Source: Thiohalomonadaceae bacterium
Lineage (GTDB): Bacteria; Pseudomonadota; Gammaproteobacteria; Thiohalomonadales; Thiohalomonadaceae
NCBI GenBank assembly: GCA_050287105.1
Contig: JBNKBG010000001.1
Span: 1,546 to 65,545 of the forward strand
Reading direction: 5' to 3'
DNA: 64,000 nucleotides
The notes beneath the pieces were generated by a model that saw nothing but the letters and a program-made list of their open reading frames with translations, made no database searches and was not told the origin of the DNA. Numbering within the stretch: position 1 is the first letter of the stretch; every line of letters starts with the position of its first letter. Made by a program: the position numbers and the translations under genes. Shown here piece by piece: positions 8,159 through 63,328 of this stretch.

Positions 8159-8166
8159 GTAATATT

Positions 8167-9417: not shown

Positions 9418-9425
9418 CCACTCAG

Positions 9426-10301: not shown

Positions 10302-10303
10302 CA

Positions 10304-10903: not shown

Positions 10904-10938
10904 CGTAATACAATCTTGGATCAAGACTACTAAACGTA

Positions 10939-11912: not shown

Positions 11913-12318
11913 CAGTATATTTTTTTCCTGCATCAACAAATTCGACTATGGCATTCCAGTCCGTCCTTGATGCAGTACAAACAGGTAATGTTGTTTTACC
12001 CACCCATGATCCATTACTACGTATAAGTCGATAACGATTTAAACCCATATCCATTCCTACCATCTGAAAATCCACGACAACACCTTGCCCTCCATCAGTG
12101 GCACCCTCAATTTTTAGTTGTGTAGCAAACGGGTTCAGGGGCTTAACATCCGGGCCTAACTGTAATGTGAGCGTATATCCCGCATTACTTACGACACAGC
12201 TCATAACCGCAGCATCACATGCCTTTGCGTTACCTAGTTCGATAGCAATATCACTATTGCCACACGCACTTAACATACAAGAAAGTAGAGGGATGAGAGA
12301 AATGTGATACTTATACAT
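11881..12318 (-). CDS. putative lipoprotein, function unknown
   Basis: 145 aa. Signal peptide with lipobox LSAC. The convergent 32-nt overlap with yacG makes the exact 3' end less certain. Confidence 0.45.
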
Positions 12319-12327
12319 AGCGTATAC

Positions 12328-13314
12328 CTAACTATTTTTCCAAAATGTACGAATACCAGCAATACCTTGGGCACCACTCTGCCATGCCTGTGACAAATTA
12401 CTAATGTGCATTCCACCTAGTGCGTAGACGGGTACAGCAGATTCATCACATACCGTCATGAAAGTCTCCCAGCCCATTGGTTCTGTATCAGGATGCGAAA
12501 GTGTCCTCTCGACAGGCCCCAAAAGAACAAAATCACACCCAATCCTATTTGCATGTCGCACTTCTTCAATGCTGTGGCATGAAGCACTAAGTAATTTCGT
12601 ATCAGGAACTGTCCTACTATTTGTTTTAAGCAGATGTTTTGATGGAAGGTGCCATCCATCAAAATCAAGCTCTGCTATCTTATGCGTATCTATCTTTCTC
12701 ATTTCTATATTTAAAATTACTTTGCAGCATCTACGGTGACAGATAGATATCACTTCTTCAGCCAATTCTACGTATTCCGATGGTGCAAGTGATTTAGCTC
12801 TAAACTGGAGAAGCGTAATTCCATTTAGTAAACTGGAATCTAGCTGTTTCAGGTAGCCATCCCAGCCCTTATCAGTATCACACGGCTCAGGAGTAATCAT
12901 ATACTTATCGGGAAGCTGGCATGCTGTCACAATGGTTTTGTTGGCAGCGGGAATTTGTGTAACAGCCATATCATCCAGAGAAACCCACTTAACAGCTTGT
13001 CCCTCTGCCCCGGCTGGTTCACCCTTATAGGTAGTAACAAGCCAAACATCTAAGAGGACATGCTTATCTGGATAATCATACGGAATACGAATTAGTGGAC
13101 GTGAATCCGTAATGGTGATGCGTAGCTCTTCATAAATCTCCCTAACTAATGCCTCTTCTACGGTTTCACCTACCTCCACCTTACCACCAGGAAATTCCCA
13201 TAATCCGCCTTGATGTGAATCGGGATGACGCTGAGATATTAAGATACATCCATCCTCATCACGAATAACTGCTACAGCGACAATTTGACGGTTATGCTGC
13301 ATAAAATGCATCAC
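12328..13314 (-). CDS. Nudix (MutT-like) hydrolase fused to a ThiE-like (thiamine-phosphate synthase fold) domain
   Basis: Nudix box GGKVEVGETVEEALVREIYEELRI in the N-terminal half. The C-terminal half is TIM-barrel ThiE-like (ASCHS..E...A...G.DFVLLGPV). Same fusion and position as the Pseudomonas mutT-argJ-secA neighbourhood. Confidence 0.8.
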   Translation of the reverse strand: MMHFMQHNRQIVAVAVIRDEDGCILISQRHPDSHQGGLWEFPGGKVEVGETVEEALVREIYEELRITITDSRPLIRIPYDYPDKHVLLDVWLVTTYKGEPAGAEGQAVKWVSLDDMAVTQIPAANKTIVTACQLPDKYMITPEPCDTDKGWDGYLKQLDSSLLNGITLLQFRAKSLAPSEYVELAEEVISICHRRCCKVILNIEMRKIDTHKIAELDFDGWHLPSKHLLKTNSRTVPDTKLLSASCHSIEEVRHANRIGCDFVLLGPVERTLSHPDTEPMGWETFMTVCDESAVPVYALGGMHISNLSQAWQSGAQGIAGIRTFWKNS

Positions 13315-13328
13315 CTGAATACACCATT

Positions 13329-14543
13329 TCAGGTACGATACTCTGCATTAATTTTTACGTACTCATATGAGAAATCACATGTCCACACTGTTGTTTGGGT
13401 ATTACCTCTCCCCAGCACCACATGTATGGTTATCTCTTCGCCGGACATAGCCAGCTGACCCAGCTCTTCCGTGTAGCCGACATCTGGTTCGCCATTGTGA
13501 ATAACGCAGACATCACCAAGATATATATCAACCCTACCAAGGTCCAGGTCATTTACACCGGCACGTCCTACCGCAGCGAGTATTCTCCCCCAATTAGGGT
13601 CTGATGCAAATAGTGCCGTTTTCACTAATGGAGAATGTGCGATCGTATAAGCTATTTTACTAGCTTCATCATCACATTTGGCTTCTGCTACTTTAATGGT
13701 GACAAACTTAGTTGCCCCTTCACCATCCTTAACGATCTGCTGCGCAAGACTGGTCATGATTTCATCAAGTGCTGATTCAAATAACACCTGATCATTTGTG
13801 CACTCTTCAACAGCTACTTCCGATTCACCACTCGCAATCAATACACACGCATCATTTGTTGAAGTATCACCATCTACAGTAATCCGGTTAAATGACTTAT
13901 TTACAGATGAGAGCAGAGCGCGGTGCAATATAGATGCTTCGATAACGGCATCGGTTGCTACAAAGGCAAGCATAGTCGCCATATCTGGACGAATCATGCC
14001 TGAACCTTTAGCGATACCCGTTATGGTTACCTCACCAGTCGACAACATTACTTTTCCCGTCGCACCTTTTGGCACCGTGTCAGTAGTGAGTATTGCTGAC
14101 GCCGCTTCGCCCCAGCTATTTGCATCGAGCCGCGAGGTAACTTCAGGTATAACGTTTTGAATACGCTCAACAGGCAGCGGAGCGCCAATTACGCCAGTTG
14201 AGAACGGCAACACCTCTTCAACCAGGCACTCGGTTGCATCAGCAATACAGCGGCAACATGTTACAGCATCAGTATATCCGGCAGCACCAGTACCAGCATT
14301 GGCGTTCCCGGTATTTATTAGCAGATATCGTGGTTTGGAACGACTCAGGTGCTCTCTGGCGAGTACTACCGGAGCGGCACAAAATAAATTTCGGGTAAAT
14401 GTCGCAGCAACCGAGCAAGAGTCAGACAGCTCAAAAAGAACCACATCCTTACGCCCAGGTTTCTTGATGCCAGCAGAGGCTGTGGCAATTCTCACGCCAG
14501 CTATCGGCATTAATTCTGGCAGACCACTATATAAAACGGCCAT
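13329..14543 (-). CDS. argJ: bifunctional glutamate N-acetyltransferase / amino-acid acetyltransferase
   Basis: 404 aa with motifs NTGNANAGTG, TTDT.PK and GMI.P.MATML. Confidence 0.95.
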   Translation of the reverse strand: MAVLYSGLPELMPIAGVRIATASAGIKKPGRKDVVLFELSDSCSVAATFTRNLFCAAPVVLAREHLSRSKPRYLLINTGNANAGTGAAGYTDAVTCCRCIADATECLVEEVLPFSTGVIGAPLPVERIQNVIPEVTSRLDANSWGEAASAILTTDTVPKGATGKVMLSTGEVTITGIAKGSGMIRPDMATMLAFVATDAVIEASILHRALLSSVNKSFNRITVDGDTSTNDACVLIASGESEVAVEECTNDQVLFESALDEIMTSLAQQIVKDGEGATKFVTIKVAEAKCDDEASKIAYTIAHSPLVKTALFASDPNWGRILAAVGRAGVNDLDLGRVDIYLGDVCVIHNGEPDVGYTEELGQLAMSGEEITIHVVLGRGNTQTTVWTCDFSYEYVKINAEYRT

Positions 14544-14557
14544 ACTCTACTCCGCAG

Positions 14558-17263
14558 TTAGGCAACTTTCCCATGACATTGTTTGTATTTTTTACCAGAA
14601 CCACATGGGCAAGGTTCATTCCGTCCTACTTTCTTACCGTCTCTAACAAATGGCTGCGCCACATCACCAGCACTATCATCTTCTTCGTCGGGTGAGAAGG
14701 TATTAATTTCATCATGCTCATACTGCATATCAATATTACTGCGACGCTGCTGTTCAACTGCCGCGACATCTTCTTCAGCTTTCACCTCAACTTTTGAAAT
14801 AATCTTGATGACATCATATTTTATGCGGTCAAGAAGTTGCGTAAATAGTTCGAATGCCTCTCGTTTATACTCCTGCTTAGGGTTCTTTTGCGCATAGCCA
14901 CGCAGATGTATTCCCTGCCTGAGATAGTCCATTGCGGCAAGATGCTCTTTCCAAAGCGTGTCAAGAACCTGAAGCATTATGGCCTTTTCAAAGTGTCGAA
15001 TGACATCGCTACCCGCCTGCTGCTCCTTATTTGCATATAGCGTTTTCATTTCTTCAAGAACCCGATCTCGCAGAGACTCTTCATGTAATGATTCATCAGA
15101 TTCAAGCCAACCACGAATATCCATTTTCGCCGAAAAATCATCGTCAAGACGAGTTTCCAGCCCTGCAACATCCCATTGTTCTTCAATGCTCTGTGGTGGA
15201 ATATATTCGTCAATTACTGCATTGATCACATCTTCACGAATGGTTTGAATTGTTCCCGATATATCCACCTGGGACATCAAATCAGTGCGTTGCTCATAAA
15301 TAACCTTACGCTGATCATTTGCAACGTCGTCATATTCAAGCAGATTCTTTCGTATATCAAAGTTATGTCCCTCAACCTTGCGCTGGGCATTTTCAATTGC
15401 ACGGGATACCCATGGATGCTCGATAGCTTCGCCTTCTTGCATGCCCAGTCTTTGCATAATGGAAGAGACTCTATCAGATGCAAAAATGCGCATCAGGTTG
15501 TCTTCCAGGGAAAGATAGAATCGACTTGATCCAGGGTCTCCCTGGCGACCAGAGCGCCCACGTAATTGATTATCTATACGGCGCGATTCATGACGCTCAG
15601 TACCAATAATATGCAGACCACCTGCATCAATTACTTTCTGATGCCGTATATTCCAGTCGACCTTTTCTGCTTCAATAGTCGCGTCCGATGCATTTTCACC
15701 CAATGCAGCTAGTGCAGCGTCAGGGTTACCTCCAAGTACGATATCAGTACCACGTCCGGCCATGTTGGTTGCGATAGTTACCGCGCCAGGGCTGCCAGCC
15801 TGAGCAACAATTTCGGCTTCACGCTCATGTTGTTTGGCATTCAGTACTTCGTGTTTGATGCCATTCTTTTTCAGTAGTTCTGACAGATATTCAGATATCT
15901 CAATTGATGTGGTACCTACTAAAGTCGGTTGCCCGCGTTTATTACAATCCCTGATGTCTTCAACGATGGCATCAAATTTTTCCTTCGCCGAAAGATAAAT
16001 CAGGTCACCCATATCATTGCGAATCATCGGCCGGTGAGTTGGAATGACCAGAACTTCGAGATTATAGATTTGCTGGAACTCGTAGGCCTCTGTATCCGCA
16101 GTACCTGTCATACCAGACAGTTTGTTGTACAAGCGAAAATAGTTTTGAAAGGTAATTGAGGCCAGGGTTTGGTTCTCACTCTCTATCTTAACGCCCTCTT
16201 TCGCCTCTATCGCCTGATGCAATCCATCGGACCAGCGTCGCCCAGCCATTGTACGACCAGTAAATTCATCAACTATGACGATCTGTCCATTACTAACGAT
16301 ATAATCCACATCTTTGTGGAACAATACATGAGCACGTAGCGCCGCATTAACATGGTGCATGAGATTGATATTCGCGGCGTCATATAGTGATTCGCCGTCA
16401 GAAAGCAACTTCTCTTGCATCAGCAAATTTTCAATACGCTCGTGCCCATCTTCGGTGAGATGCACTTGTTTGGATTTTTCATCCACAGTGTAGTCGCCTG
16501 GTCCATCCTCTTCTTCGACCTTCTTCAGTCTGGGAACCAGCTTATTGATACTGACGTATAGATTTGAACTGTCTTCTGCCTGACCCGAGATAATAAGCGG
16601 CGTTCTTGCCTCGTCGATCAGGATAGAGTCAACTTCGTCGACTATTGCATAGTTCAGTTCACGCTGCGCCTTATCCTCAAGGCTAAATGCCATATTGTCA
16701 CGCAGATAATCAAAACCAAATTCGTTATTCGTGCCATAGACAATGTCACAGCTATAAGCGTGTTGACGCTCTTCCTGTCCAATACCATTGACGATTACGC
16801 CTGTCGTCATTCCAAGGAAGGTATATAAGCGCCCCATCCATTCCGCATCCCGGCGTGCAAGATAGTCATTCACTGTAATTACGTGCACACCTTTACCCGA
16901 TAGCGCATTCAGATACGCGGGCAGCGTTGCCATCAGGGTTTTACCTTCACCGGTACGCATTTCGGCGATTTTTCCGTTATGTAGTGCCATGCCACCGATC
17001 ATCTGCACATCGTAGTGGCGCATACCAAATACGCGCTTGCTTGCCTCGCGCACAACCGCAAATGCTTCCGGTAATAGGGAGTCGAGTGTATCGCCCTGTT
17101 GCAGTCGTTTCTTGAATTCGACGGTCTTGGCCTGCAAAGCAGAATTATTTAGCGACTCATACTCCGGTTCCAGTGCATTAATTGAGTCAACCGTCTTACG
17201 CATGCGCTTAACTGCACGATCATTACGGCTGCCGAAAATATTGCTGAAAATTTTGCTAATCAT
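14558..17263 (-). CDS. secA: preprotein translocase ATPase SecA
   Basis: 901 aa with MRTGEGKTL Walker [20 protein letters not shown], and C-terminal zinc motif [14 protein letters not shown]. Confidence 0.98.
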
Positions 17264-17324
17264 CTAATGTCTCATCCCAATACAAAGCATACAATTAAAC
17301 GGAGTATTGCCTGAAACTGCGCGG

Positions 17325-18533
17325 CTACTCCACCTTGGCGACAGGTGAATAATCACCTGTACGCAAGTACTCGGGGGATGATCCAGATGCCAAGGATGGT
17401 GAGGAAATACTTATGGTCCCGCGCTGATCGATTAAGAGCGAGGTGTGAGGGAAATCTTTCCGCGTTAAATCCGAGATAATATTTGCTGCAGTGTTTTTTT
17501 CATCAGGCAGCGTACCAACTTCTCTCTGCTGCTTTGCTGAAACAATCTTTCCGCCTATGAAACGCCCTGTACTATCCATGTCTGCCAGTAACAGTGGCGC
17601 TATACCATTTTCATCGCGGATATTGATACCCCAGTGAGTGGCAAAATTACCCAGACTGTAGGCGATCAAGCGTTCCTGATACAGTTCTAGTGCACGCGGC
17701 ACATGTGGCCCATGGCCAATCACCAGATCAGCTCCCGCCTCCACAGCCATGTGGGCAAATTCCACTACGTCACCGCGATCCTCGCCATGAAAATATTCAT
17801 GGGCAAAAGGAATACGCATGCTATCTGCACCCTCAGCACCACCATGGATAGAAACGATAACGATGCCATGCTCAGAGGAGAGTTGTTCTATCTGTTTCCT
17901 TGCTTTGGCAATATCCAACATATCGTTGGCGCCTTTAAAGGGAGCAAAAGCAATCACCGCAACCAGCTGCCCTTTTACCTGCAAAACCGCAATATCACCT
18001 TCTCTACCACTATGTCCAATACCGGCTGCGGCAAGAACAGCCATGCTGCTATCACGCCCCTGCTCGCCAAAATCACGTGCATGATTGTTAGCAAGACTAA
18101 GAACATCAAAACCAGCCAGCTTTAACTGTTCAACAAATCGGCCTGGTGTTCTAAACAGATAACAACTGTTGGGCGAAGAACACTGTTTTTCCGGTTCACC
18201 GCCATCAAGCAGGGAACCTTCCAGGTTACCAAAAGTGATATCGGCCTGGCGCAGCTCTTCAGCCATCGCCTGCAATAGACGCACATCATCAGAAGGAAGG
18301 TGATCATTAGGGAAATCGTTACCCAGCATAATATCGCCGACCGCAGCCACACGGAGATTTGGCAACACTTCGGCACGATTATCGGGAACTTCCTGTCTTA
18401 CCCCATTACTGGAACAGGCAGCAAGAAAGAACGACAGACACAACGCGACACCTCGTGCCGAGTAGTGTCGACCCGAGTGGCTTCTGTTATGTTTTGCCGT
18501 AAAACCGCTCTTCATGGATGACATACTGCTCAC
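17325..18533 (-). CDS. CapA/PGA_cap family metallophosphatase-like lipoprotein
   Basis: 402 aa with lipobox FLAAC. Motifs GD.M.G, NLE, LANNH and HGG.E are typical of the CapA family. Confidence 0.7.
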   Translation of the reverse strand: MSSMSSMKSGFTAKHNRSHSGRHYSARGVALCLSFFLAACSSNGVRQEVPDNRAEVLPNLRVAAVGDIMLGNDFPNDHLPSDDVRLLQAMAEELRQADITFGNLEGSLLDGGEPEKQCSSPNSCYLFRTPGRFVEQLKLAGFDVLSLANNHARDFGEQGRDSSMAVLAAAGIGHSGREGDIAVLQVKGQLVAVIAFAPFKGANDMLDIAKARKQIEQLSSEHGIVIVSIHGGAEGADSMRIPFAHEYFHGEDRGDVVEFAHMAVEAGADLVIGHGPHVPRALELYQERLIAYSLGNFATHWGINIRDENGIAPLLLADMDSTGRFIGGKIVSAKQQREVGTLPDEKNTAANIISDLTRKDFPHTSLLIDQRGTISISSPSLASGSSPEYLRTGDYSPVAKVE

Positions 18534-38131: not shown

Positions 38132-38593
38132 TCAGAGAGAGAGGTTCTGGAGTTCCGGCGGCAGTTGCCCATCGGCGATGGACTCGTCTGCCAGCCAGTT
38201 ATCCCGCTGTGCGTTCCACAGCGCGGCATCCCACAATTCAAATTTCTTGCCCTGGCCGATCAGCACCACCTGCTTGTCCAGGTTGGCGTATTGGCGCAGC
38301 GGCGGGGGGAGGAGCAGACGGCCGTTGCCATCCATCTCCACATCGGTGGCATGACCCATCAGCAGGCGTTGTACCCGGCGGGCCTGGGAGTTGAAACTGG
38401 GCAGGGCATCGAGTTTCTGCTCGATCGCCTCCCATTCGGGCTGGGGGTAGATGAGCAGGCAGCGCTCCTCGGTATCGATGGTGATCACCAGACGACCATC
38501 GCTACGCTCGTTCAAGCGCTCGCGATAACGCGTCGGCATCGCCATGCGACCCTTGGCATCCAGATTGAGTTCTGTCACTCCCCGAAACAACAC
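38132..38593 (-). CDS. mraZ: transcriptional regulator MraZ
   Basis: GTG start. FRGVTELNLDAKGRMAMPTRYR, duplicated SpoVT/AbrB-like halves. Confidence 0.95.
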   Translation of the reverse strand: MLFRGVTELNLDAKGRMAMPTRYRERLNERSDGRLVITIDTEERCLLIYPQPEWEAIEQKLDALPSFNSQARRVQRLLMGHATDVEMDGNGRLLLPPPLRQYANLDKQVVLIGQGKKFELWDAALWNAQRDNWLADESIADGQLPPELQNLSL

Positions 38594-43044: not shown

Positions 43045-43620
43045 GTGGTACTACGTCTTAGCGTCCTCCTCACCCTGCTCTCTCTGCTCTCCTCCTGTGC
43101 TGCACCGCTGGTGATCGCCGGAAGTGCGGCGGCGGGCGTGATGATCGCCAAAGACAACCGCAGCCCCGAGGTGATGCTCAATGACGAACGCATTGAACTC
43201 AGCGCCCAGGAGCGCATTACCGCCGATGCGGAGCTGCTCGCCAGCAGCCACATCAACATCACCAGCTATAACGGCGTGGTATTGATCACTGGGGAAGTAC
43301 TGCTACCGATGTACAAGGCACAGGTCGAGAAGCTGGTACGGGAAGAGAATGGTGTACGCGAAATACGTAATGAACTGCGCATCGCTCCGGCCAGCAGCAC
43401 CGAGAGCCGCCGCAACGACACCCTGCTCACCTCCCGGGTGCTCTCGCGCCTGTTCGATGCCGAGAATATCGATTCGACCAACGTCAAGGTGGTCAGCGAA
43501 AATGCCACCGTCTACCTGATGGGCATGCTCAATCGAGCCGAGGCGGAGCGCGTGGTAGAGGTGGCGCGCCGCACCTCCGGCGTGGCACGCGTGGTCAAGG
43601 TCTTCGAATACACGGGATGA
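43045..43620 (+). CDS. dual-BON-domain lipoprotein (DolP/YraP-like)
   Basis: GTG start, lipobox LSSC, two BON-like segments. Synteny after diaA. Confidence 0.8.
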   Translation: MVLRLSVLLTLLSLLSSCAAPLVIAGSAAAGVMIAKDNRSPEVMLNDERIELSAQERITADAELLASSHINITSYNGVVLITGEVLLPMYKAQVEKLVREENGVREIRNELRIAPASSTESRRNDTLLTSRVLSRLFDAENIDSTNVKVVSENATVYLMGMLNRAEAERVVEVARRTSGVARVVKVFEYTG

Positions 43621-51820: not shown

Positions 51821-52663
51821 TTAGTTCCAATCGAAATCATTACCATAACCATACTTAGTCAGAGACTCACCAGCAGTCTCTTTAAAAGCTTTGATATGCT
51901 CAGGCTTAAATAATTCTCTCCAGCCTCCGCTTTCCCCCCTTCTGAAAGTTAAAGTTTTTGTCGAGTAAATATTTTCACAAATATAATCAAGTTCTTTTTC
52001 TGTTAGGGCAATCTCAAGATGTTCGGCAATTGACATAACACATGTTCGCTGCATCTCACGGGTTCCACCACCCCTTTCCCCAATCAGTTCTTCAAAACGA
52101 ACAACGAGTGAACACTCCTCTTCGAACCACTCCTCAAATCTCAAAAGCGCATCGGAAAGCGGTGAAACAATACCATCAACTCCCTGTATAATCGCCATTA
52201 GACGCGCATCATCATCAGGAAGTGAACTAAAGTAATTATGAGCATGGTGGGTTAAATCTATTGATGTCACGTATTTTACATAAGAAACGGCAATGTCCCT
52301 AGGATCCCTTATCATGAACAGCACTTTAACTCCCTGTTCCTTGACGAGTGATAGCACTTCAGGATGAGAAGGAAGATGTGCATTCCAGAACTGGCCTTTT
52401 TTAATATTACGTATACGATGAGACGTCAAACTGTCTATTTCGTCCCAACCCCTCAACGTTCTTTTCCCCACATTTCTTAGAAGAGGAAATCTTTCCAGAG
52501 TACGCTCAAGCATATTGGTTCCAGCCTTGGGAAAGCTATTCATCAACACCCTAGGCCCCACAAATCTGCCTTTAATTGCGCTAACGCTCATTCCACGCAA
52601 AGTAACAGCGATCTTCTTGCGCCCGAAATATAAATATCTATCTAATAAATTCTGCTGTTTCAT
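51821..52663 (-). CDS. sulfotransferase family protein
   Basis: 280 aa with a PKAGTNML (5'-PSB-like) and an IRDPRDIAVS (3'-PB-like) PAPS-binding motif. AT-rich flanks. Confidence 0.65.
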   Translation of the reverse strand: MKQQNLLDRYLYFGRKKIAVTLRGMSVSAIKGRFVGPRVLMNSFPKAGTNMLERTLERFPLLRNVGKRTLRGWDEIDSLTSHRIRNIKKGQFWNAHLPSHPEVLSLVKEQGVKVLFMIRDPRDIAVSYVKYVTSIDLTHHAHNYFSSLPDDDARLMAIIQGVDGIVSPLSDALLRFEEWFEEECSLVVRFEELIGERGGGTREMQRTCVMSIAEHLEIALTEKELDYICENIYSTKTLTFRRGESGGWRELFKPEHIKAFKETAGESLTKYGYGNDFDWN

Positions 52664-52775: not shown

Positions 52776-52839
52776 AAAGAGAACGGGGACAGACCAAAGA
52801 GAACGGGGACAAAGAGAACGGGGACAGACCACGGTTTTC
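52776..52839. repeat. REP-like repeat cluster at the 3' side of rayT
   Basis: aaagagaacggggacagacc at 52776-52795, a truncated copy at 52796-52810, a full copy at 52811-52830. cggggacagaccacggttttc (52819-52839) is the exact reverse complement of a 21-mer in both right-hand copies. Confidence 0.8.
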
Positions 52840-53533
52840 AGTATTCTTCACGCCTTGGTCTCCCAGATTTTCCAGGCGTCACACGCCTGCCAAGCATCGT
52901 CTCCACCTGCTCCGCAAAGCGGCCATCCCCTAACACAAAGTTACCATTAGTTGATTTCCTAATTTCATCAATAACACCAGGTTCCATTTGGTAACGAAAC
53001 AACTCACGATAAGCGACCTGCCTCTCAATATCGCTTTCCCCTAGAGCCGTATACAACGGATGAGGACTTAGCAACTTATTACCATCCATCCCTTGTCCGT
53101 TTGCACGATAACTTGACCAAGGGTAGTCCGCAGGATGATCAACCATACCGGCACGAACTGGATTCAGTTCAATGTAACGATGGCAGGTGAGCAGGTATGT
53201 CTCATCTTGAATCAAACAGGAGCGGTAGCGTCCCTCCCATAAGGTTCCACTACGCCGATAGGTGCGATTGACGTATTGCACATACCGCTGACCTAGTTTC
53301 TTCATCATCTGCCCTACTGATTCAGCCTTATCAGGCGTTAGCAGCATATGCACATGATTAGTCATTAAGACATAGGAATGAATCGCACATCCTGTTTCCT
53401 CAGCATATTTCCCTAGCCACTCCAGATAGAACTGGTAGTCCTGGTCGGCATAGAAACAGGCCTGACGATTGTTTCCTCTCTGAATGATATGTAGCGGGAT
53501 ATTAGGCAGCGCTACCCTTGGACGCCTTGGCAT
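52838..53533 (-). mobile_element. REP-associated tyrosine transposase (RayT / IS200-like Y1 transposase)
   Basis: 231 aa: HIIQRGNNRQACF, VLMTNHVHMLLTP (HUH), YIELNPVRAGMV..P.DYPWSSY (catalytic Y region). Flanked by inverted REP-like repeats. Confidence 0.85.
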
Positions 53534-53576: not shown

Positions 53577-53660
53577 TGTCAGGCACCTGGAAAACCGTGG
53601 TCTGTCCCCGGTTATTTTAATGTCAGGCACCTGGAAAACCGTGGTCTGTCCCCGGTTATT
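53577..53660. repeat. two direct copies (44-nt period) of a 40-nt REP-like element at the 5' side of rayT
   Basis: tgtcaggcacctggaaaaccgtggtctgtccccggttatt at 53577-53616 and 53621-53660. It contains the inverted 21-mer of the left cluster. Confidence 0.85.
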
Positions 53661-53947: not shown

Positions 53948-54199
53948 ATGGCTAAGCGCGATTGTACGGGTAAAACACGCCCAGGAAAAATCCCCACCCA
54001 TAAATGGCTTACCGTCGGTAGGTTCTATTACTACTACACTCCCACCAAAGACGCTCCACCCGGCACGTCCAATCACTCGGTCATGGTGCCTGCGATTAAC
54101 ATCAAGGGCCGCTGGCTGGATGAGGCTGGCTTTGCCATTGGGGCCAAGGTCAGGGTGAGGGTCTGTCAGGGGTGTTTGGTGATGACGGTTGAGGAGTGA
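53948..54199 (+). CDS. symE: SymE family type I toxin (AbrB/SpoVT-fold)
   Basis: 83 aa. LTVGR...VPAINIKGRWLDEAGFAIGAKVRVRVCQGCLVMT aligns with E. coli SymE (LTVSY...[34 protein letters not shown]). AGGAG RBS upstream. Confidence 0.8.
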   Translation: MAKRDCTGKTRPGKIPTHKWLTVGRFYYYYTPTKDAPPGTSNHSVMVPAINIKGRWLDEAGFAIGAKVRVRVCQGCLVMTVEE

Positions 54200-54207
54200 G
54201 GAAAAGA

Positions 54208-54240
54208 AAGCCCCGCTTGCCGGGTGGCAGGCGGGGCTTT
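54208..54240. terminator. bidirectional rho-independent terminator between symE and the Rhs operon end
   Basis: aaagccccgc...gcggggcttt 10-bp stem, A-rich upstream, cttttc downstream. Confidence 0.7.
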
Positions 54241-54270
54241 TCGATCTGAAAGGGCGAGTTCAGTCAGGAA

Positions 54271-54666
54271 CTAATCCCAGTAGCTTTTCTTCCTTGGGAA
54301 AAACTCCATCGCACCGACATTGCCGGAGAAGGTGAATTTGCCATGAATTCCATCTTCTTGAATGGAGCCAGCAAAGCTACCACCGTATAACGTGTCAGCA
54401 ATAGCAAATCTAATATTCCCCTTCTCAATAGTTGGATGCACAACAATCAAATTACCTGCACCACCCTCGCATATCTGGAGCGTCCCAACGTATCCTTTTT
54501 TCGTAACAATGATCCGCAACTCAACTCCTGACAAATCTCCCGACTCATCGTTATAAGCAATGCTGGAAAACGTTCCTGTATATTTAACTCCATCTGCTAA
54601 TGCACAGTTAGCAACGAGTGCAATCAGCAAAACAAACAACAAATATATTTTCGTGTTTTTCATCAT
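54271..54666 (-). CDS. exported small protein, candidate immunity for the orphan M15-like toxin
   Basis: Signal peptide MMKNTKIYLLFVLLIALVANCALA. The ATG overlaps the toxin TGA (ATGATGA). No recognisable family. Confidence 0.55.
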   Translation of the reverse strand: MMKNTKIYLLFVLLIALVANCALADGVKYTGTFSSIAYNDESGDLSGVELRIIVTKKGYVGTLQICEGGAGNLIVVHPTIEKGNIRFAIADTLYGGSFAGSIQEDGIHGKFTFSGNVGAMEFFPRKKSYWD

Positions 54667-55202
54667 TTGCACCCGCAATCTGCTGCGCCACTCGCGGCAT
54701 CTTTCTGAGCATCTGCAATATACTTCGACCGATTACCTCGACCACCAGGAACTTCATTGTAGAAGTGAACAGGGTCTGGAGTGCTGAAATTCCCACCCCA
54801 GCTTATTCCCGCAGCCGCCGCATTAGCCGCAACGGTTGCTTGCTGCGCTTCACTAAACGTTCTCATGCTAACGTCAAAGGCATACCCTGCCTCATGCAAG
54901 CTAGTACCGGCTTGCGCTGGTGTAGTTGCATTCGGATTATTCTGTAATTGCGCCTGATATGCCGTAGTACGGAAACCTTCCGTGAACGTAACATCCGTGC
55001 CAGTAGCATGGTTCTTTGCAATGAAGTCCATAACCTTTGGATAGAAACTGTCATCCATATAAGTATCGCCAAGGCCAGGAAGGTTAGCTTTGCACAACTT
55101 CAATCCTAGAGGATCAATAAAGTTGATCGGGTCATTGAAGACGTAGGAGTAGAAATTCAGACCACCGTTAAACCTGATCGGGTCCTTTGCGGTAAACCCC
55201 AC
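54663..55202 (-). CDS. orphan Rhs C-terminal cassette: Rhs core remnant plus LAS/peptidase M15 (VanY-like) toxin domain
   Basis: aa 1-34 DPIRFNGGLNFYSYVFNDPINFIDPLGL matches the Rhs core end. Then GFRTTAYQAQL, SLHEAGYAFD and WGG..STPDPVHF, the GxRxxxxQ / SxHxxGxAxD / DxxH motifs of M15 zinc peptidases. Only a GTG start with no SD, so it may be silent. Confidence 0.7.
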   Translation of the reverse strand: MGFTAKDPIRFNGGLNFYSYVFNDPINFIDPLGLKLCKANLPGLGDTYMDDSFYPKVMDFIAKNHATGTDVTFTEGFRTTAYQAQLQNNPNATTPAQAGTSLHEAGYAFDVSMRTFSEAQQATVAANAAAAGISWGGNFSTPDPVHFYNEVPGGRGNRSKYIADAQKDAASGAADCGCK

Positions 55203-55207
55203 TAGTT

Positions 55208-55750
55208 TTAATCATCAAACTCCATGAGGCATTTTTTATACGATTTATTCCAACTTAACTTCTCTTCAATTACATGCTTATATTTATCCATAAACTCCGT
55301 TTTAAGTTTCACCTCATCTCCTTTTGAGTCAGCAAGACTAAAGCCAGAGTCGATTGCCTTACATGTTGTTTCAATTAAGAACTGTCGATTCCGCAGGACA
55401 TCGAGAATTTCACTATGTTTTCTCTCAAAAATATCCAGAAACGTCTCGCCAACATGTTCGGTTATGTCTGAACTTGCACTTTTGTATGCAGCAAACACTA
55501 TGAGCAGATAAACTCTCAAATCCGCATCAGATGAGTCACTCGCTTTCATTCGCTGCCAATAGCTATTATACAAGTCACCCCACTCTCTATAGCGTTCAAG
55601 CTTTGCTTTAGCATCGCCTCCCTTAGAACTAACGTTCAGAAGTTTATCTACAATTATGTATGCTTCCTTTTCTGTCAGCACATCACTTGCGCAAGCAGAC
55701 AGCGAAACGAGTGATAAGCCTATCATCATCAAGAATTGACATATCTTCAT
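55208..55750 (-). CDS. lipoprotein, candidate immunity protein for the main Rhs C-terminal toxin
   Basis: MKICQFLMMIGLSLVSLSAC lipobox. AAGGTGAG RBS 7 nt before ATG 55750. Directly downstream of the Rhs stop. About 32% GC in a hand-counted line. No recognisable family. Confidence 0.6.
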   Translation of the reverse strand: MKICQFLMMIGLSLVSLSACASDVLTEKEAYIIVDKLLNVSSKGGDAKAKLERYREWGDLYNSYWQRMKASDSSDADLRVYLLIVFAAYKSASSDITEHVGETFLDIFERKHSEILDVLRNRQFLIETTCKAIDSGFSLADSKGDEVKLKTEFMDKYKHVIEEKLSWNKSYKKCLMEFDD

Positions 55751-55771: not shown

Positions 55772-58700
55772 TCACTGTTTAGTAACAGTGACACCTTCTT
55801 CACGCCCAAAATTGCTGAAGAAAGAGTCACATTGGTCTGGCTTAATTGTAAAGCAGGCATCAGAACCAGTATTCGATTGACTGTACCCACAATGAACAAA
55901 CACACTTGAAGCAGTGGAATTGGGCGAGCCATCGTTTGTTGGCAAGTCATCAGGGAAGAATATGCCTGGGCGCGGGTTTCCGTTAGCATCCGGTGTCGCT
56001 CTAAACGTATTGATCCCCTCATATGTGCCAGGAGCAACAGTGTTTTCATTGGCAGGATCGTTCGGGACAGTACTACCTTCCCCAGTAAATACAACATTGC
56101 CATTTGAATCTGTCACCGTAACAGTGGAATCGTATGTACCAGAACCACTACCAGGAGTGAATACCACTGTAGATTGCAGCCCAGAAGGATCAATTCCATT
56201 GATCGGGTCGCTAAATGCGTAAGCGTAGAGGTTCGTTTGGCCTCCCCCGAATTTAATTGGATCATCTGCGGTCCACCTTCCCGTCACCGCATCATAATCC
56301 CTCGCCCCAAACCGTGTCAGTTGGGTGTGCTGGTCATAGATGCCGCCCGAAAACCCAAACGGCTGGAATCCGGGATTGGTGTCGTTGGTGACATTCCCGA
56401 ATTCATCATAGTCCATTCGCTGCACGATTTCGCCTGTGCTGCTGTTGACGATGAGCCTCGGACTGCCGAGGTGGTCGCTGATGATGCGATAGGTGATGCC
56501 ACCCTTGACCATGTAGCTCGGGACGTTGCCTTTTTCAGCGTAGGTGAATCTTGCTGTGACGTTCCCTGCCCCATCCAATTCGGCGATGGGATTGAGCTGG
56601 TCGCGGTAGAGGAAGCCCTGTACCAGTACACCGTCGACTTTTTTACCGATTCGCCGGTTCTGCCCATCGATGAGATAGTCGATGGTCATTCCACCCGGTA
56701 GAGTGACCTGCATCAGGTTACCCAGCAGGTCGTAGTGGTAGTTGGTGGTTAACCCCGCTTCGGTTTTGCTCAGTAACTCACCATTAGTGGTGTAGCTATA
56801 ACTGGCTCCACCATAGGTCAACAACCGATCCTGCTCATCATAGGTGGCACCGGTGCCGTTGTGGTCGATGCGGTTACCATTAAGGTCGTAGGTGTAAGTG
56901 GAAACAATGACGCCATCCTTACTCACCGTCTGCAATCTACCCGCCAGGTCGTAACCGTAGTCGTAGATGGTAGTCACGCCTTCTATGTTTTCGGTCTTTT
57001 GGGTGATACGGCCCAGTTTGTCTCGCTGGTATTGGGTGTCCAGCACGGTGGTGCCACTAATTTGCGCGGTTTCACCTGTCGCCTCACCGAAGCCGTTGTA
57101 GGTACAGCTGGTGGTGAGATTGCTCAGGGTGGTACCGGTAAGCAGGCCGTTTACAAGACTGCGATCCAGAGTCAGATCACCCGCTTGTGATAACAGACCA
57201 TCATCATCGTAACCATAGCTGACAGCGCTACCGTTGACGCTGCGGCTGGTGATCCAGAAGTTGTTGTCGTATGTCTGGCTGACGTTGCCGCTGATGTCGC
57301 CCGCCCATGTGGTGGAGAGGGGCAGGAAGCCATCGTAACTATAAGTGAGGGTGTTGCCATCAGGCGCGGTCAGTGTACTCAGTTTGCCCGTGGTGGCGTT
57401 GTAGTCATAGCCGTACTGGCCTCGCGGAATAGTAAGTGTGGCAAGCTTGCCCCCACTGTTGTAGCCGAGGGTGACTGTCTGGCCGTCCGGACGCAGGACT
57501 TTGGTCAATTGCTTGTCGAGGTTGTAGCTGTATTGAGTGATTGTTTCCACGCCGCTCAGGTTAGGTGGTGTGTAGTCAGTCTCTTTATCAACAGTGTTGT
57601 AACTGAAAACGTGGGCGCTTTTCCCCGGCGGGGTGAGGCTGGTGAGGTTGCCGTTGGCATCGTAGCCATATTGGATAATACGACCATCAGGCAGTTTCTG
57701 TTCGGTTACCCGACCCACAGCATCATTGGTAAAGATAACATTTCGACCCATCGGATCGGTGATACTCCCGAGATAACCTTGGTTGTCGTAATCGAAAGTG
57801 AGAGAACGGACAGTAGCACCGATTCCTGTTGTGATACCGGTTAGGCGGCCACGAGTATCGTAATTGTAATTTACCGCATCAAGATCAAATCTCTGATCTA
57901 AAACCGGCCGACCTTTATCGTTCAGCTCGACATGACTCTGGCGACCGGCAGGAGTCGTTGCCGTCCAGGTGTGTGTGGCAGCGTCGTAAGCGGTGGAGGA
58001 AGTCCTACCGTTGACCGTAGTAGTTTCCGATAGCGTGGTCAAATCGCTGGCGTCGGTCAGTGAAGCCGTGCGATCAGCGCTGAGAGAGAGGGTTATGCCT
58101 GCCTGGGTAGTGATGGTGGAAGCATTCACGTAGGGCGCCCCCATGCCGTCACGCGGGTCGGGTACCCTGTGCAAAGTACGCACAGTGCCATCTGCAGCGG
58201 TAGCTGTTTCTGCAATCTCGTTGTCTGTGGTCGTGATATGGCGGGTAGCCACAGTACCGTCCGGGGAAATTGAGGTTCTTAATATTTCCGTTTCGTTCAG
58301 TCGCTCGACGCCAAAGCGTGAGATGCGGCCTTCCCCACTGGTCATGCTCCCTTCGAAACCGTTGTCTGTCTGGGTGCGAGCGAGTATCCAGCCACCGCCA
58401 TCGGGCTGAGACTCACTAGTCAAACGACCGAGGGTATCGTACCCATAAATGTATTCTGCCCCTGCCGGTTTCTTGAAAGATGTCATGAGACCACCCGATG
58501 TGTATCCCATTTGGTACGTTTCACCAACAGGATTGGCGACTGAGGCAAGGTAGCCATTAGGATCCAGTGTAACTATGGTACGTTGTCCATCAGGAGCAGT
58601 GATGGCAGTAGGTTTACCTGTGATATCGCGTTCGATGGTGATGGTGTTGCCGTCGCCATCTTCGAAACCGATGAGATTCCCGTCGCCGTCATAATTAAAC

Positions 58701-61700
58701 GTCTGGCGTACCGTGCCGGTTACGCTATCAAGAGTACGGAGGTGTCGACCCGAAACATTGAATACGTAGTATTCGCTGTGATCAGCAGCAGGAACCATGA
58801 ATTCGCCGGTCGACAATTCGATGCCCGGAGGAGCTACCCGGCGGATACGGAAGTTGTAGGTGTCCGCAATGTAGAGACTGCCGTCGGGGCCGAGGGCTAC
58901 ATCGTGCGGCCGGTATATATGCGCCAGGATGGCCGGGCTACCGTCACCGCCATAACCGGCAACACCGATGCCAGCTACAGTGGTGATGATACCTTCTGGG
59001 CTCACCTGGCGAATACGGTGGCCTCTATTCTCTGCAATGTAGAGATTGCCATCTGGGCTGAAGGCGACGCCAGACGGCCCGTTGAGCAATGCCTGTGTAG
59101 CCGGACCATCATCACTGCCATAACCACCACCGGCCACGGTGGTGATAATACCATCCGAGCTCACCCGGCGGATTCGGCCGCTGTAATAATCCGCAATGTA
59201 GAGGCTACCGTCGGGGCTGAGTGCCAGACCGTTCGGGTAGCGGAACTGCGCCAGTGTAGCCAGACCACCGTCGCCACCATGACCCCAAGCACCGCTACCG
59301 GCCACAGTGGTGATGATGCCGTCCGGACTCACCCGACGGACGCGATTGTTAAGAGTATCCGAAATATAGAGGCTACCGTCGGGTCCAAGGGCAACACCAC
59401 CTGGGCCGGAGAGTTGTGCCTGGGTGGCTGGGCCGCCGTCGCCGCTAAAACCTGAAACACCGGTGCCAACCACAGTAGTGATGATGCCGTCTGCCCCCAC
59501 CATGCGGACACTATGACTACCGTAGTCCGCTATGTAGAAGCTACCGTCAGAGCCGATGGTGATATCGGACGGGGAGACGAGCTGCGCCTGAGTGGCCAAA
59601 CCGCCGTCACCGCTATATCCACTAGTGCCTGTACCGGCCACAGTGCTAATGATGCCGTTCGGGCTCACCCGGCGGATACTGGGATAGGTGGTGTCCGCAA
59701 TGTAGAGGCTGCCGTCGGGGCCGAGAGCGATACCGTGCGGGGTAGTTAACCGTGCCTGGGCGGCCGGACCGCCGTCGCCACTATAACCGACAACACCTGT
59801 GCCAGCCACGGTGGTAATGATATTGCCCTGAGCGGCTGCACGGCGCCACGTTCCGTCGCCCCGGTAGAGGATGGACTCAGCTGTGCCGTAAGTGTGCTGC
59901 GCATCCAGGCTCCATCTACCCATTTCGGCGGCACTCGCTATATTGCCGCTTACAGCAACTGTGTGCTGCCGGGATAAAACCACTTCCGCAGTCGCCCGGT
60001 TCCCGCCAATAGCCACGCCGGTACCGATCCGAGCAAAAGAAGAGGAAAACCCGCTAGGTTTACTATAGATGGCACTATAGACAAAGTGCAGGCTAGAGGT
60101 AAGGTTGACATAGCCCATCACGGACCGGCCAAACCCATCCTTTCCGTCCCACTGGAATGTGGTGTGCAAATTCGGCGCAGGAACAAAGGTCTGGTGGTGA
60201 ATCTGCCCGGCCACACGGATTTCGAGTTCTATTCGTTTCAGTGAACTCGGTACGGAAGAACCACTTATCGAAATATCGACTGTTCTACCCGCGACATAAC
60301 CCGGCACACGATCAGAGCGATAGTTGAGAGTATAGGATGTACCTGTGATTGGAATCGACTCACCCAGCACCTGATTCTCCGCTTCGATGATACAGCCGGT
60401 GCATTCTGTTGGATCGAATGGCTTGTCTTTATTTTTCGTCTTTGCCAAATCTACAAGCGGCGGTACCGCATTATTCGGCGGTACAAACGGCCAATTGTAA
60501 TCCCAAGGTGTAAAGTGGGTGATCGGTGCGCGCCACAGGCTCTTACCTGGCTGGTAGAGTTGTACCAGTTGCGCACGCTCTGCGTCGGTAATTCCAAGGG
60601 CGGCCAGTGCAGCCACATCAGCGGGTACACCACTGCCATCGACATCAATATCTGCCATACCGTTGCTGACAGAAAGTATTTCGATCACCCGACCGTTATC
60701 CGACGGAATCCAGGTAGCTTTATCGCGGTCGTACCAGCCCACTGGCACGATCCCTCCAACAGGGAAACCGATGAAGTTGTCGACGTAGACGGGTACCGGC
60801 TGGTTGAATTGCACTGTCCTGGCACCAGCATTGATTGCTTCGTCCACACTCAGTTCCACCGCGTAAGTATAACCGCTGCTCGGCGGCAATTTGCCCGGCA
60901 TGGTATCGGGGCCTTCCGTACCGACGGTGTATTCGGTGGCACGGACGTTCATTGAAGTGAGTGGTTGTGTGCTGCCGTCTGGCATAACCATGCTAGCCTG
61001 GAGCCCCTGAGGAAAAAGAATGGTCGCCTGGCGACTACCGTCGGCGTCTGTCATGACGCTGCCCTGCGCCACCTGGAATGGTGTGCTGGAGTTAAGGTCG
61101 ATGGTGGCGACGTTTGTGTCTAGCGGAATCATCACCACGTCCGACAGCCAAGCGTAGTCCTTCCACGGCGCATTCACTTGCCGTTGTACCGGCAGGTAGC
61201 CTTCCTTTATGTAGTTGACGGTGAGGATGCCTCCGCCATTTACCGCCATATCGAACATGCCGTCGGTACGAGTACCGGACCAGCCGAATTCACTGTGATT
61301 GAGAATGCTGATGGTCACACCTTTCAATGGTGCGCCGCCACGGGTAGTGACCTTGCCGCGCAGTATCGCGACACGACGCTCCTTAATGGTGTTTGGTGGT
61401 ACATCAAACTGAATCGGATGGCTACCACTGTAGAGAAAGGCAGTGGAGTCGTATAGTTTAGTGGCCACAGTCGGATCGTTAGGTGGTGCGACATTGGCTG
61501 GGTCGACCGGCACGTACCCGTTATTGGGTATCGGTGTCACATTGCCGGTAGAGATCGTTACATCTTCTACAGCGGTGTTACCTGCACCGTCACGCACAGT
61601 GATAATCAGATCATCGCCTGGGCTCGTAGCCAATTGCGCGCTAAAACTACCGTCCGCAGCAACCTGCACCGTCACCGATTCTCCGGTGGACGTATTGGTA

Positions 61701-63328
61701 ATGGTGATCCAGCTACCCGGTTCAGCACTACCTGGCGCACCAGTGATGATCGCGCTACCTGCTTCGATGACGATCGTGATCAAATCACCGTTTACAGGTT
61801 GCGGAGCGATGGTGTCGAGGGTACCGCTGAGGGCATAGGTGGTACTGTTACCCGCCAGATCGGTGGCAATGATATCGAAGCTGTTGCTACCCTCAGTCAA
61901 TGCAGCGCTGTGACTGAAATAATTCTGCGCATTGAGGAGCAGTGCAGTCCCGTTAATCGTGGCTTTGACTGTCTCGTTAATCGCACCGTTAATAGTGAGC
62001 GGAGTCTGGTTGGTAATGAAATCGTTGGCCGGAGTATCGACAGTAATGACTGGAGGAATAGTATCGACGGTGAAGGTAACTTCAGTTTTGTCCGAGGTGT
62101 TACCGGCGAAGTCTTCGACATGAGCCGCCAGAACGGCACCACCATCGGAAAGAGGGCTGGCCAGTGTGCATTGGGCTGTGGCCTCTGTCGTATCACATGT
62201 CGCTGCGACTTCGGCACCATTGATATATAGTTTCAGGCTATCACCATCCACCCCCATACCATTGTCGCTATAACTGACCTTGATGGTGGGCAGGTTGGTA
62301 TTGAGGTAGCTGCCATCCAGCGGCAGGGTAATAGTGAGTGTGGGAGCAGTTGTGTCATAGTAGATCGCCAGGGCGCGAATAGCTTTACTTCGATTCGCGT
62401 CACCAATGGCATGGCGTATTTGCCCAGATGAATCTATGTGGATTAATTGTTTGTTGTTTGCCAACCAGGCGCTACCGTCGGCCTTGTCGGCTACCAATGC
62501 GACGCTCCTACCTCCAAAATGGGCTCCACGATAAGGATCGATATCTACTTGTAATAGACCACTACCATCGGTCTTGAGCAGGTTCTTCTCGCCTACAGCC
62601 CAGACTGCTCCGCTGTAGTCCGAGGCCAGAAAATCAATTGGTCTAATGCCTTGCTGAAACTTTAAAGTGCCTGTTTCATCAACACGCATCAATTCCTTCT
62701 CGGTAGCGAACCACAGTTCCTGCAAATATTCGTCAAATGAAATTGCCTTGATCTTGTCCTTTGTATTGAGAATATTCTGCAGGACTAGTGTTGCGCCCTG
62801 ATCGTCAACAAGATACAACCATTTTTCATCTGCCAACCAAACTTGAGAGGACAGTGGAGCATAGGTGAGCCCGGTGATATTTTCCTTTGCTTGAACATAC
62901 GCCAGCAGGTCCCCTGAAGAGGAATAGTGTGTCAATTGATGCTCATAGGCCAGCCAGATAGAGCCGTCGAGAGGCTCTATCAGCATCTCCGTATTACCCG
63001 CTCCTGGGCATCCATTAATACAGGTAATTGGATAGTTACCTATCACGGTCCCATCAAAGGCATAGGCAGTAAGTTGTTTCTTGCCGTAAGTCCAGACTAC
63101 GCCACGTTTTTCATCCAGAGCGAGTTCTTTTACATTCACTGTACTGCCGATCTCGAACAAAATTGTGCCGTCGGTGGTAGCTAGTTTGAGGATACCATCC
63201 GTCTCCGCTACCCACAGGGCACCGACATAATCGTTATTGAGGTTGGTTATCGCTTCAGCAGTGAAGGTGGTAAATAAAAGGGCGAGGGTAGAGAAAACAA
63301 TGGCGCGAAGAATGGTGGCGTGTAGCAC
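55772..63328 (-). CDS. 2518-aa secreted RHS/YD-repeat polymorphic toxin with teneurin-like architecture
   Basis: GTG start with AAGGGAG RBS. aa 1-26 Sec signal (..FTAEA). aa 36-310 seven W-containing ~42-aa repeats. aa 325-593 three Ig-like modules. aa 651-718 carboxypeptidase-regulatory/TTR-like ([19 protein letters not shown]). aa 1168-1500 six NHL repeats ([26 protein letters not shown]). aa 1530-2350 YD repeats. aa 2341-2384 Rhs core end [44 protein letters not shown]. aa 2385-2518 variable CT. Confidence 0.92.
58829..59827 (-). repeat. six intragenic tandem repeats (~160-170 nt) encoding the NHL blades
   Basis: Recurrent plus-strand motif gtagag[ga]ct[ag]ccgtcgggg at about 58871, 59041 (diverged), 59201, 59361, 59531 (diverged) and 59701. 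Confidence 0.8.

Follow-up and report, generated by a model that had tools for sequence, protein, structure and literature searches.

The gene at positions 55772..63328 (minus strand) of a 64,000-nucleotide stretch of a Thiohalomonadaceae bacterium (assembly GCA_050287105.1, contig JBNKBG010000001.1; the whole stretch is called the window below) encodes what is, judged by its sequence, a genuine bacterial teneurin-like protein (TLP) of a published family. Together with the toxin and immunity genes that follow it, the gene is proposed to form a polymorphic-toxin platform with an exchangeable payload in an uncultured gammaproteobacterium. We put the probability of this reading, with its mechanism as proposed below, at about 0.8.

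The family assignment is based on comparison with solved structures. The best matches in the PDB are the ‘Teneurin-like protein’ entries 9pt5 and 9ifo (E=0, 1432 bits; query residues 387-2384 against chain residues 154-2144), which represent BiTLP of Bacillus inaquosorum (Raoelijaona et al., Nat Commun 2026, PMC13018210). The next matches are teneurins 2, 3 and 4 and Ten-m, with E-values of 1e-86 to 1e-112, while Rhs proteins from type VI secretion systems (T6SS) match at only ~1e-30 and across the last few hundred residues. This end-to-end match to published TLP structures makes the protein a bona fide member of a known family and not a new system. A scan of 185,579 species genomes (GTDB) returned at least 545 relatives, the best of them at 55%, and the best 80 of these were used for the comparison of loci.

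TLPs have been defined by a signal peptide, variable adhesion domains and the TTR, TIP, FN-plug, NHL and YD-shell domains, followed by Rhs-type self-cleavage, a polymorphic toxic tip of ~15 kDa and a downstream immunity gene (PMC13018210). In the same work the downstream-immunity rule was tested by experiment, and the delivery machinery was stated as not evident. A first-pass annotation of this DNA, made from the sequence alone, had read the protein as a possible stand-alone, Sec-exported YD-shell toxin. That reading is supported and agrees with the published view of the whole family. The accompanying claim that such a mode of deployment is poorly described in Gram-negative bacteria does not hold, since bacterial TLPs had been noticed in 2018-2019 (PMC5851990, PMC6425310) and their characterisation followed in 2026 (PMC13018210).

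Export Signal and Domain Architecture

The gene is one open reading frame (ORF) of 2518 residues (aa) with a GTG start codon. The GTG is the sole possible start; an in-frame stop precedes it by 4 codons, and a Shine-Dalgarno sequence (AAGGGAG) by 7 nt. A scan for consensus promoters gave fewer sites than shuffled sequences and none upstream of the TLP gene. The protein is divided as follows.

63251..63328 (-), aa 1-26: signal peptide of the signal peptidase I (SPI) type, with a predicted cut between AEA and ITN, after A26
62354..63250 (-), aa ~27-325: 7-bladed beta-propeller, from AF2 modelling and Foldseek
61529..62353 (-), aa ~326-600: three Ig-like domains, from Pfam; the BiTLP alignment begins at aa 387
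61130..61384 (-), aa 649-733: transthyretin-like (TTR) domain, PF25020 TTR_TEN1-4, E 5e-24
60413..61129 (-), aa ~734-972: TIP domain, by profile match to BiTLP 481-713, E 8e-100
60059..60412 (-), aa ~973-1090: FN-plug, from PF24329 and the BiTLP alignment, with predicted autoproteolysis between G978 and C979
58829..59836 (-), aa ~1165-1500: six-bladed NHL propeller, TEN_NHL in 6 stretches (E 1e-44) and NHL in 5 stretches
56177..58795 (-), aa 1512-2384: YD-repeat shell with the Rhs core aspartyl-protease motif and a predicted cut after L2384
55775..56176 (-), aa 2385-2518: toxin tip (C-terminal domain, CTD) of predicted L,D-transpeptidase (YkuD) fold, with H2479 and C2492 as candidate catalytic residues

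The N-terminus, as read from the sequence, begins with a basic n-region, continues with an h-region of 14 hydrophobic residues, and carries A-x-A at positions -3/-1; it lacks a lipobox Cys. By classical rules it is predicted to be a substrate of signal peptidase I. This layout is shared by the 8 closest homologs (P0002-P0009), with a conserved motif directly after the signal.

Domains were scanned for with Pfam and NCBIfam profile searches. The N-terminal module, the TIP segment, the tip and both immunity ORFs gave nothing usable in these direct scans, even at E<=10. For the N-terminal module, an AF2 model of aa 27-345 built on a 12-sequence alignment (pLDDT 86, 28 strands) has 7-bladed propellers as its best Foldseek matches (TM 0.73-0.75). 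These include the designer propeller WRAP-T (7bid, TM 0.73), the archaeal S-layer YVTN propeller (1l0q, 0.74) and E. coli YncE. The stalk that follows is matched by Big_13 (357-423), Glucodextran_B (426-500) and Big_6 (533-586). The propeller and the Ig stalk may serve in receptor binding, surface attachment or target binding.

The ~440-aa segment that the first-pass annotation had left unassigned is now accounted for by the TIP domain, followed by the FN-plug. The TIP domain was named in PMC13018210, where it is found in 96% of TLPs and is not resolved in the published cryo-EM maps. Within the PDB, the TIP profile matches only BiTLP 481-713; the domain has no Pfam model and no fold relatives that can be detected by sequence. 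Outside the core motif, no other part of the protein is as conserved as the TIP domain: 43 columns are invariant among 12 diverse sequences, including W-R-x4-H-F-x3-D-x-N, and HFTPWDxNWP belongs to its many invariant residues. The FN-plug model FN-plug_TEN1-4 (PF24329) matches residues 1019-1086 with 26.1 bits, just below its cut-off of 27.8, which the sister proteins P0004 and P0007 exceed. The same region aligns to BiTLP, with the alignment over 653-867 (E 9e-50).

Further downstream, TEN_YD-shell covers residues 1512-2356 (Pfam, E 4e-42), and the Rhs core model TIGR03696 (Rhs_assc_core) covers 2307-2384 (E 1e-18). By homology to the cryo-EM structure of BiTLP, the shell is probably closed around the cleaved tip.

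All the modules that had been read from the letters were recovered by these analyses, among them the Sec signal at aa 1-26, the seven propeller-like repeats, the three Ig-like modules, the TTR-like domain, the six NHL blades, the YD repeats and the variable tip of 134 aa. The teneurin order of TTR, FN-plug, NHL and YD shell is confirmed by the alignment of ~2000 residues with the solved bacterial TLP. The Rhs core end is also present and ends at L2384, but its first motif is DPIK and not the expected DPxG; variation at the first DPxG motif is also recorded in PMC13018210. A PAAR- or MIX-type N-terminus is excluded, since the Sec/SPI signal and then the beta-propeller stand in its place and PAAR is unmatched in Pfam and NCBIfam.

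Predicted Self-Cleavage Sites

Residues R2343, D2356, D2380 and L2384 align with R2103, D2116, D2140 and L2144 of BiTLP and are invariant in an alignment of 18 proteins of the family. The conservation of these residues suggests that the core is cleaved after L2384. A second self-cleavage between G978 and C979 is chemically plausible. The FN-plug cut of BiTLP, between G723 and S724, aligns onto this position, and a Cys is found a few residues before it, as is C719 in BiTLP. The residue that follows the FN-plug Gly is Ser in 10 and Cys in 8 of the 18 aligned proteins; of the 18 sites that a pattern search matched in the 80 loci, 14 have Ser and 4 have Cys.

Toxin Tip

The tip is unrelated to the tips on the closest TLP homologs. 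Among 1.84 billion representative proteins it has 44 relatives, most of them directly after an Rhs DPxGL motif, and the tip family also occurs on ordinary Rhs proteins that contain DUF6531 or DUF6443. The family alignment shows invariant G50, H95 (H2479), G97 (G2481) and C108 (C2492), with the motif ‘(I/V)HCG...RGSxGC(I/L)T’. When the family profile is compared with the PDB, the 19 best matches are to L,D-transpeptidase 2 of Mycobacterium (LdtMt2; E ~2e-3), with the catalytic His and the SHGC Cys aligned. The LdtMt2 residues in question are presumably H336 and C354. The AF2 model of the tip has a pLDDT of 94.9, and its top 50 Foldseek matches in the PDB are all L,D-transpeptidase/YkuD proteins (probability 0.91-1.0, TM 0.36-0.54). 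Pfam YkuD (PF03734) is matched by 9 of 22 relatives, at best with 2.5e-10. On the model and the profile matches, the L,D-transpeptidase fold of the tip is confidently assigned, and the tip would act as a peptidoglycan-targeting toxin.

A precedent is the T6SS effector Tlde1a of Salmonella, an antibacterial toxin with this fold that acts in the target's periplasm, where it both trims the stem peptides of peptidoglycan and exchanges them (PMC9638812). By analogy, the tip may work like Tlde1 without being a member of its family. Membership of the Tlde1 family (PF10908) was considered and rejected: 2 of 22 relatives match weakly (E 0.0026) and the tip’s own sequence does not, which places it on a separate branch.

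Many TLP tips in other phyla (L006, L009, L022, L038, L041, L062, L072, L076 and others) are glycine-zipper-like hydrophobic segments. Such tips resemble the membrane-permeabilising tip of BiTLP, which is toxic solely when directed to the periplasm (PMC13018210).

Candidate Immunity Genes and the Orphan Cassette

Four features follow the TLP gene on the same strand.

55208..55750 (-): candidate immunity gene 1, 180 aa, a lipoprotein with the lipobox MKICQFLMMIGLSLVSLSAC followed by A
54663..55202 (-): orphan toxin cassette, 179 aa, a 34-aa Rhs core tail joined to a VanY/Peptidase_M15 domain
54271..54666 (-): candidate immunity gene 2, 131 aa, with a signal peptide cut between …ANCALA and DG and an ATGA overlap with the orphan
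54207..54240 (-): intrinsic-terminator-like hairpin at the end of the array, dG -31.4 kcal/mol, z -6.4, then a U-run (fold computed on 54205-54265 (-))

Immunity gene 1 begins 21 nt past the TLP stop codon, and the lipobox at the start of its product is canonical as read from the sequence. In P0009, the homologous tip also precedes a lipoprotein gene. The orphan begins 5 nt past the stop of immunity gene 1 and has no Shine-Dalgarno sequence. Its residues 2-34 correspond to positions 44-76 of TIGR03696, the last 33 of the core model, and are followed by VanY and Peptidase_M15_4 (Pfam). The LAS zinc ligands of this domain can be read by eye in SLHEAGYAFD...DPVHF. On these sequence features, 54663-55202 is a silent, promoterless orphan toxin tip. 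Both candidate immunity proteins carry export signals, as expected if the toxins attack the cell wall. The GC content of the tip/immunity region is 45-47%, compared with 53-58% in the body of the TLP gene.

Evidence for Payload Exchange in Sister Genomes

Two sister loci were found in metagenome-assembled genomes (MAGs), L083 in GCA_050288165.1 and L084 in GCA_050298215.1, whose SecA is 85% identical to that of the source genome. The sister TLPs lie in the identical slot, preceded by hisG-hisD-hisC and followed by a tip/immunity array and then by an ompA-like gene, degS, NIF3 and petABC. The backbone genes of this slot are 74-82% identical at the DNA level, and the homology of the main gene breaks at ~56190, at the codon of the cleavage site. 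The expressed tip is identical in 133 of 134 residues to an orphan tip in L084 (17216-18037), which precedes a truncated copy of immunity gene 1 (83% identical). The VanY orphan and immunity gene 2 are 99% and 100% identical, respectively, to the last cassette of L083. These cassette blocks are 93-97% identical at the DNA level.

Cassettes that are ~99-100% identical at swapped positions, in a backbone that is 74-82% identical, indicate that the payload is exchangeable. In the sequences compared, payload switching by cassette recombination is visible between the sister genomes. To our knowledge, this comparison of three sister genomes gives the first clear case of orphan-cassette switching at a TLP gene. 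Similar orphan toxin/immunity arrays are known from T6SS Rhs and CdiA loci, where promoterless tips with a short core stretch and their own immunity gene can replace the expressed tip through homologous recombination (PMC3150448, PMC3967940). By pattern matching, orphan core tails lie downstream at only 5 of 56 loci; this number is too low, as many main-gene cores escaped the same pattern. The label ‘immunity’ for gene 1 is given because of its position, its export signal and its travelling together with the tip in L084.

Other tips in the sister slot precede proteins without signal peptides, so the platform would also carry toxins with presumably cytoplasmic targets.

A protein that serves chiefly in cell-cell adhesion or kin recognition, like the animal teneurins, and in which the toxin function is secondary or vestigial would explain the large N-terminal propeller and the Ig stalk, and a signalling or adhesion role has been left open in PMC13018210. 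The cleavage residues that have been lost from metazoan teneurins are all intact here, however, the tip retains its invariant His/Cys pair, and selection on toxicity is indicated by the presence of immunity genes and of orphan cassettes in active exchange. A chiefly adhesive protein is therefore considered very unlikely.

Several further observations concern the arrays. The orphan ORFs at 16324-16920 of L083 and 17216-18037 of L084 have differing tips and a common leader of ~45 aa before the core tail FTAxDP…. This leader (…SEKxRLGKILTxxVPxWKKAxANDCxVxExxEISVRRASGDR) is missing from the VanY orphan of the window. GCA_050298215.1 also has a second TLP, P0005 (2892 aa; L085, contig JBNKTT010000035.1, 8001-16679), whose chromosomal site is unrelated and whose Peptidase_M23 tip is followed by an exported 168-aa ORF.

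At the end of the array in the window, an 83-aa ORF at 53948-54199 (+) matches SymE_toxin (type I toxin-antitoxin, E 1.8e-15) and is part of an element at ~53962-54241. In both sister arrays, the first immunity gene is directly followed by an 87-90% identical copy of this ~270-nt SymE element with the terminator hairpin. The element may form a cassette junction or a spacer. Direct 40-nt repeats (aataaccggggacagaccacggttttccaggtgcctgaca) at 53577-53616 and 53621-53660 adjoin a REP-associated tyrosine transposase (RAYT) gene at 52838-53533 (-) (NF047646, E 8.5e-22), and the arrangement resembles a REP/RAYT pair that has inserted where the toxin array ends. Next, a sulfotransferase gene (PF00685) at 51821-52663 (-) stands where both sisters have an OmpA/Gly-zipper lipoprotein gene beside degS; with this replacement, the end of the island is remodelled.

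Genomic Neighbourhood and the Question of Delivery

ORFs of at least 150 aa were scanned across most of the 64-kb window (all but a few, 3034-3624, 38132-38593 and 43045-43620), and no T6SS, Tc or two-partner secretion (TPS) genes were found among them. The matches that were found are to housekeeping and other genes: an Ump antiporter, nadC, pilBCD, coaE, zapD, argJ, secA, an M23 peptidase and lpxC; ftsZAQ-ddl-murBCG-ftsW-murD-mraY-murFE-ftsI-rsmH, rsmI, lpoA and gmhA; and an FAD oxidase, a macro domain, sspA, petABC, NIF3 and degS, besides the sulfotransferase and the REP-associated transposase. The genes pilBCD are a type IV pilus assembly set, and no link between them and the TLP was seen. 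The presence of lpxC and the dcw cluster indicates a diderm organism, and SecA is 73% identical to that of Thiohalobacter and Thiohalomonas, which points to uncultured Gammaproteobacteria. The region ~8000-18000 has a GC content of 43.5-47.5%, compared with 56-63% on both sides, and its genes are core genes (pilC, pilD, coaE, zapD, NUDIX-thiE, argJ, secA).

The 80 best loci are spread over Pseudomonadota, Myxococcota, Acidobacteriota, Actinomycetota, Chloroflexota, Planctomycetota, Verrucomicrobiota, Nitrospirota, Bdellovibrionota and other phyla. No recurrent partner gene was found next to them when the flanking ORFs were clustered by BLASTP, a method that misses remote homology. What recurs in the flanks is further fragments of TLP/Rhs genes, at 13 loci, besides regulators and kinases in scattered places. 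The first-pass annotation had seen no recognisable delivery apparatus and no T6SS, Tc or TPS neighbour in the window. Both statements agree with the profile scans, and the first extends to the 80 loci of the family. A CdiA or TPS toxin was considered as well and rejected, as the TPS domain, FHA repeats and a CdiB/TpsB transporter were not detected in the protein or in the scanned ORFs of the window.

A T6SS-delivered Rhs effector, with its VgrG, PAAR or adaptor genes outside the window, would share the YD shell, the Rhs core and the polymorphic tip with an immunity gene, and its kind is suggested by the presence of the tip family on ordinary Rhs proteins that carry DUF6531. The N-terminus speaks against such an effector, since PAAR, prePAAR, MIX and VgrG-binding modules are absent and a conserved Sec signal and a beta-propeller are found instead. 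A Sec-exported periplasmic protein cannot load on the cytoplasmic T6SS spike. In addition, tss genes are absent from the scanned ORFs of the window and from the surroundings of the 80 related loci, and the TLP family reaches Bacillota and Actinomycetota, Gram-positive phyla without T6SS. Delivery by a T6SS is thus highly improbable.

The same very low likelihood is given to a fused TcB-TcC-type cocoon whose tip is injected by a TcA pentamer encoded elsewhere. A YD cocoon, an aspartyl-protease self-cleavage motif and a small encapsulated toxin are all features of Tc toxins. TcA/TcB-type domains (SpvB, TcdB mid) are nevertheless absent from the protein and from the scanned ORFs of the window, the shell has a teneurin-like FN-plug closure and an NHL propeller in place of the TcB propeller, and none of the 80 loci has a TcA-like neighbour.

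Proposed Mechanism and Its Significance

In the proposed mechanism, Sec would export the precursor and signal peptidase I would remove its first 26 residues, with the cut behind A26. The superfold of TTR, TIP, FN-plug, NHL and YD shell would close round the C-terminal tip in the periplasm to give a capsule of 270 kDa. The Rhs aspartyl-protease core (R2343, D2356, D2380) would then cut after L2384, with the second self-cut between G978 and C979, and the free 14-kDa toxin would remain within the shell. The N-terminal propeller and Ig stalk would mediate surface attachment or target binding. Once in the periplasm of a target, the L,D-transpeptidase-fold toxin would damage peptidoglycan stem peptides, like Tlde1. 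The downstream lipoprotein would be the immunity protein, located where the toxin acts and where the TLP matures. A peptidoglycan-targeting payload and exported immunity proteins together place the site of action in the periplasm. Finally, the orphan VanY/M15 tip shares a core tail of ~100 nt, as needed for recombination, and would allow the payload to be exchanged.

Several points weigh against this scheme. The closure of the shell is drawn from homology only. The FN-plug nucleophile is a Cys, whereas it is Ser in BiTLP. The tip’s own sequence stays below every Pfam threshold, and its assignment to YkuD comes through its relatives and a profile E-value of ~2e-3, with moderate Foldseek TM-scores (0.36-0.54); its motif is GSDAC in place of the usual S-x-G-C. 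Immunity gene 1 and the lipoprotein of P0009 have no significant similarity beyond the signal peptide (E 0.067). The gene survey is that of a 64-kb window, so that a distant T6SS, Tc or type II secretion system (T2SS) partner is possible, a point in favour of the T6SS alternative.

The toxin might also work without active secretion. The periplasmic capsule would then be freed by lysis or vesicles of a subpopulation and attack exposed walls, for example those of Gram-positive neighbours, and the immunity lipoproteins would provide self-protection during maturation only. No outer-membrane export device is evident in the window or at the 80 loci, and peptidoglycan-acting payloads (YkuD, M15, and M23 in the sister protein P0005) require no entry into the cytoplasm. 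Release by lysis is known for Tc toxins, as cited in PMC13018210. On the other hand, the genes downstream of the sister tips in the same slot encode proteins without signal peptides, which suggests cytoplasmic targets and a real translocation step, and no lysis cassette was found nearby. Release of this kind is rated as unlikely.

Within the proposed platform, a more speculative view of the system can be offered, which we hold only tentatively. The TLP may be a chromosomally fixed, SPI-exported, apparatus-free capsule that is re-armed through recombination from the orphan array downstream. With several payloads (YkuD, M15, M23) acting on peptidoglycan, it would need only to breach the outer membrane of the target, perhaps via the universally conserved TIP domain. 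If this is true, the locus is a tractable entry point to the unsolved delivery mechanism of TLPs.

Bacterial TLPs gave rise to the teneurin receptors, by which the nervous systems of animals are wired, and the delivery of TLP toxins is an acknowledged open question. The additions made here are a plain Sec/SPI signal in a Gram-negative TLP, the 7-bladed propeller, the FN-plug Cys, a YkuD payload with lipoprotein immunity, and cassette exchange. These details are useful and will not surprise specialists in polymorphic toxins, and the locus is a reasonable model for export, target entry and payload exchange.

Comparison with Known Systems

The present protein shares with BiTLP the order of signal, adhesion/Ig domains, TTR, TIP, FN-plug, NHL, YD shell, core, tip and immunity gene, and the catalytic Arg/Asp/Asp is the same in both. 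It differs from BiTLP in its additional 7-bladed N-terminal propeller, in the Cys (Ser in BiTLP) at the FN-plug cleavage site and in its YkuD-fold tip. Compared with the TLPs described in PMC13018210, it has a gammaproteobacterial SPI signal, whereas the Gram-negative TLPs of that paper, mainly myxobacterial, have lipoprotein signals of the signal peptidase II (SPII) type. It is also followed by an orphan tip/immunity cassette with evidence of exchange; the TLP paper makes no mention of orphans, peptidoglycan or transpeptidases (PMC13018210).

The metazoan teneurins 1-4 and Ten-m share the superfold of TTR, FN-plug, NHL and YD shell (E ~1e-110, aa ~980-2376). They have neither the TIP domain nor the self-cleavage motif, are equipped with a transmembrane helix and EGF repeats, carry their ABD/Tox-GHH tail outside the shell, and are adhesion receptors. 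WapA of Bacillus subtilis and other Sec-dependent YD/Rhs toxins have a Sec signal, YD repeats and a polymorphic C-terminal toxin with an immunity protein, and they act in a contact-dependent manner without a dedicated injection machine. WapA has no TTR, TIP, FN-plug and NHL superfold and is anchored in the Gram-positive wall, whereas the present TLP must cross the outer membrane.

Tlde1/Tlde1a of Salmonella resembles the tip in being a small YkuD-fold domain with a His/Cys pair and a periplasmic immunity partner (PMC9638812). The difference is in the carrier: Tlde1 is T6SS cargo, and the tip would be held inside a YD shell. The orphan arrays of Rhs and CdiA loci are the closest counterpart of the cassette exchange; here, the array is attached to a TLP, and it is the comparison of sister genomes that points to exchange.

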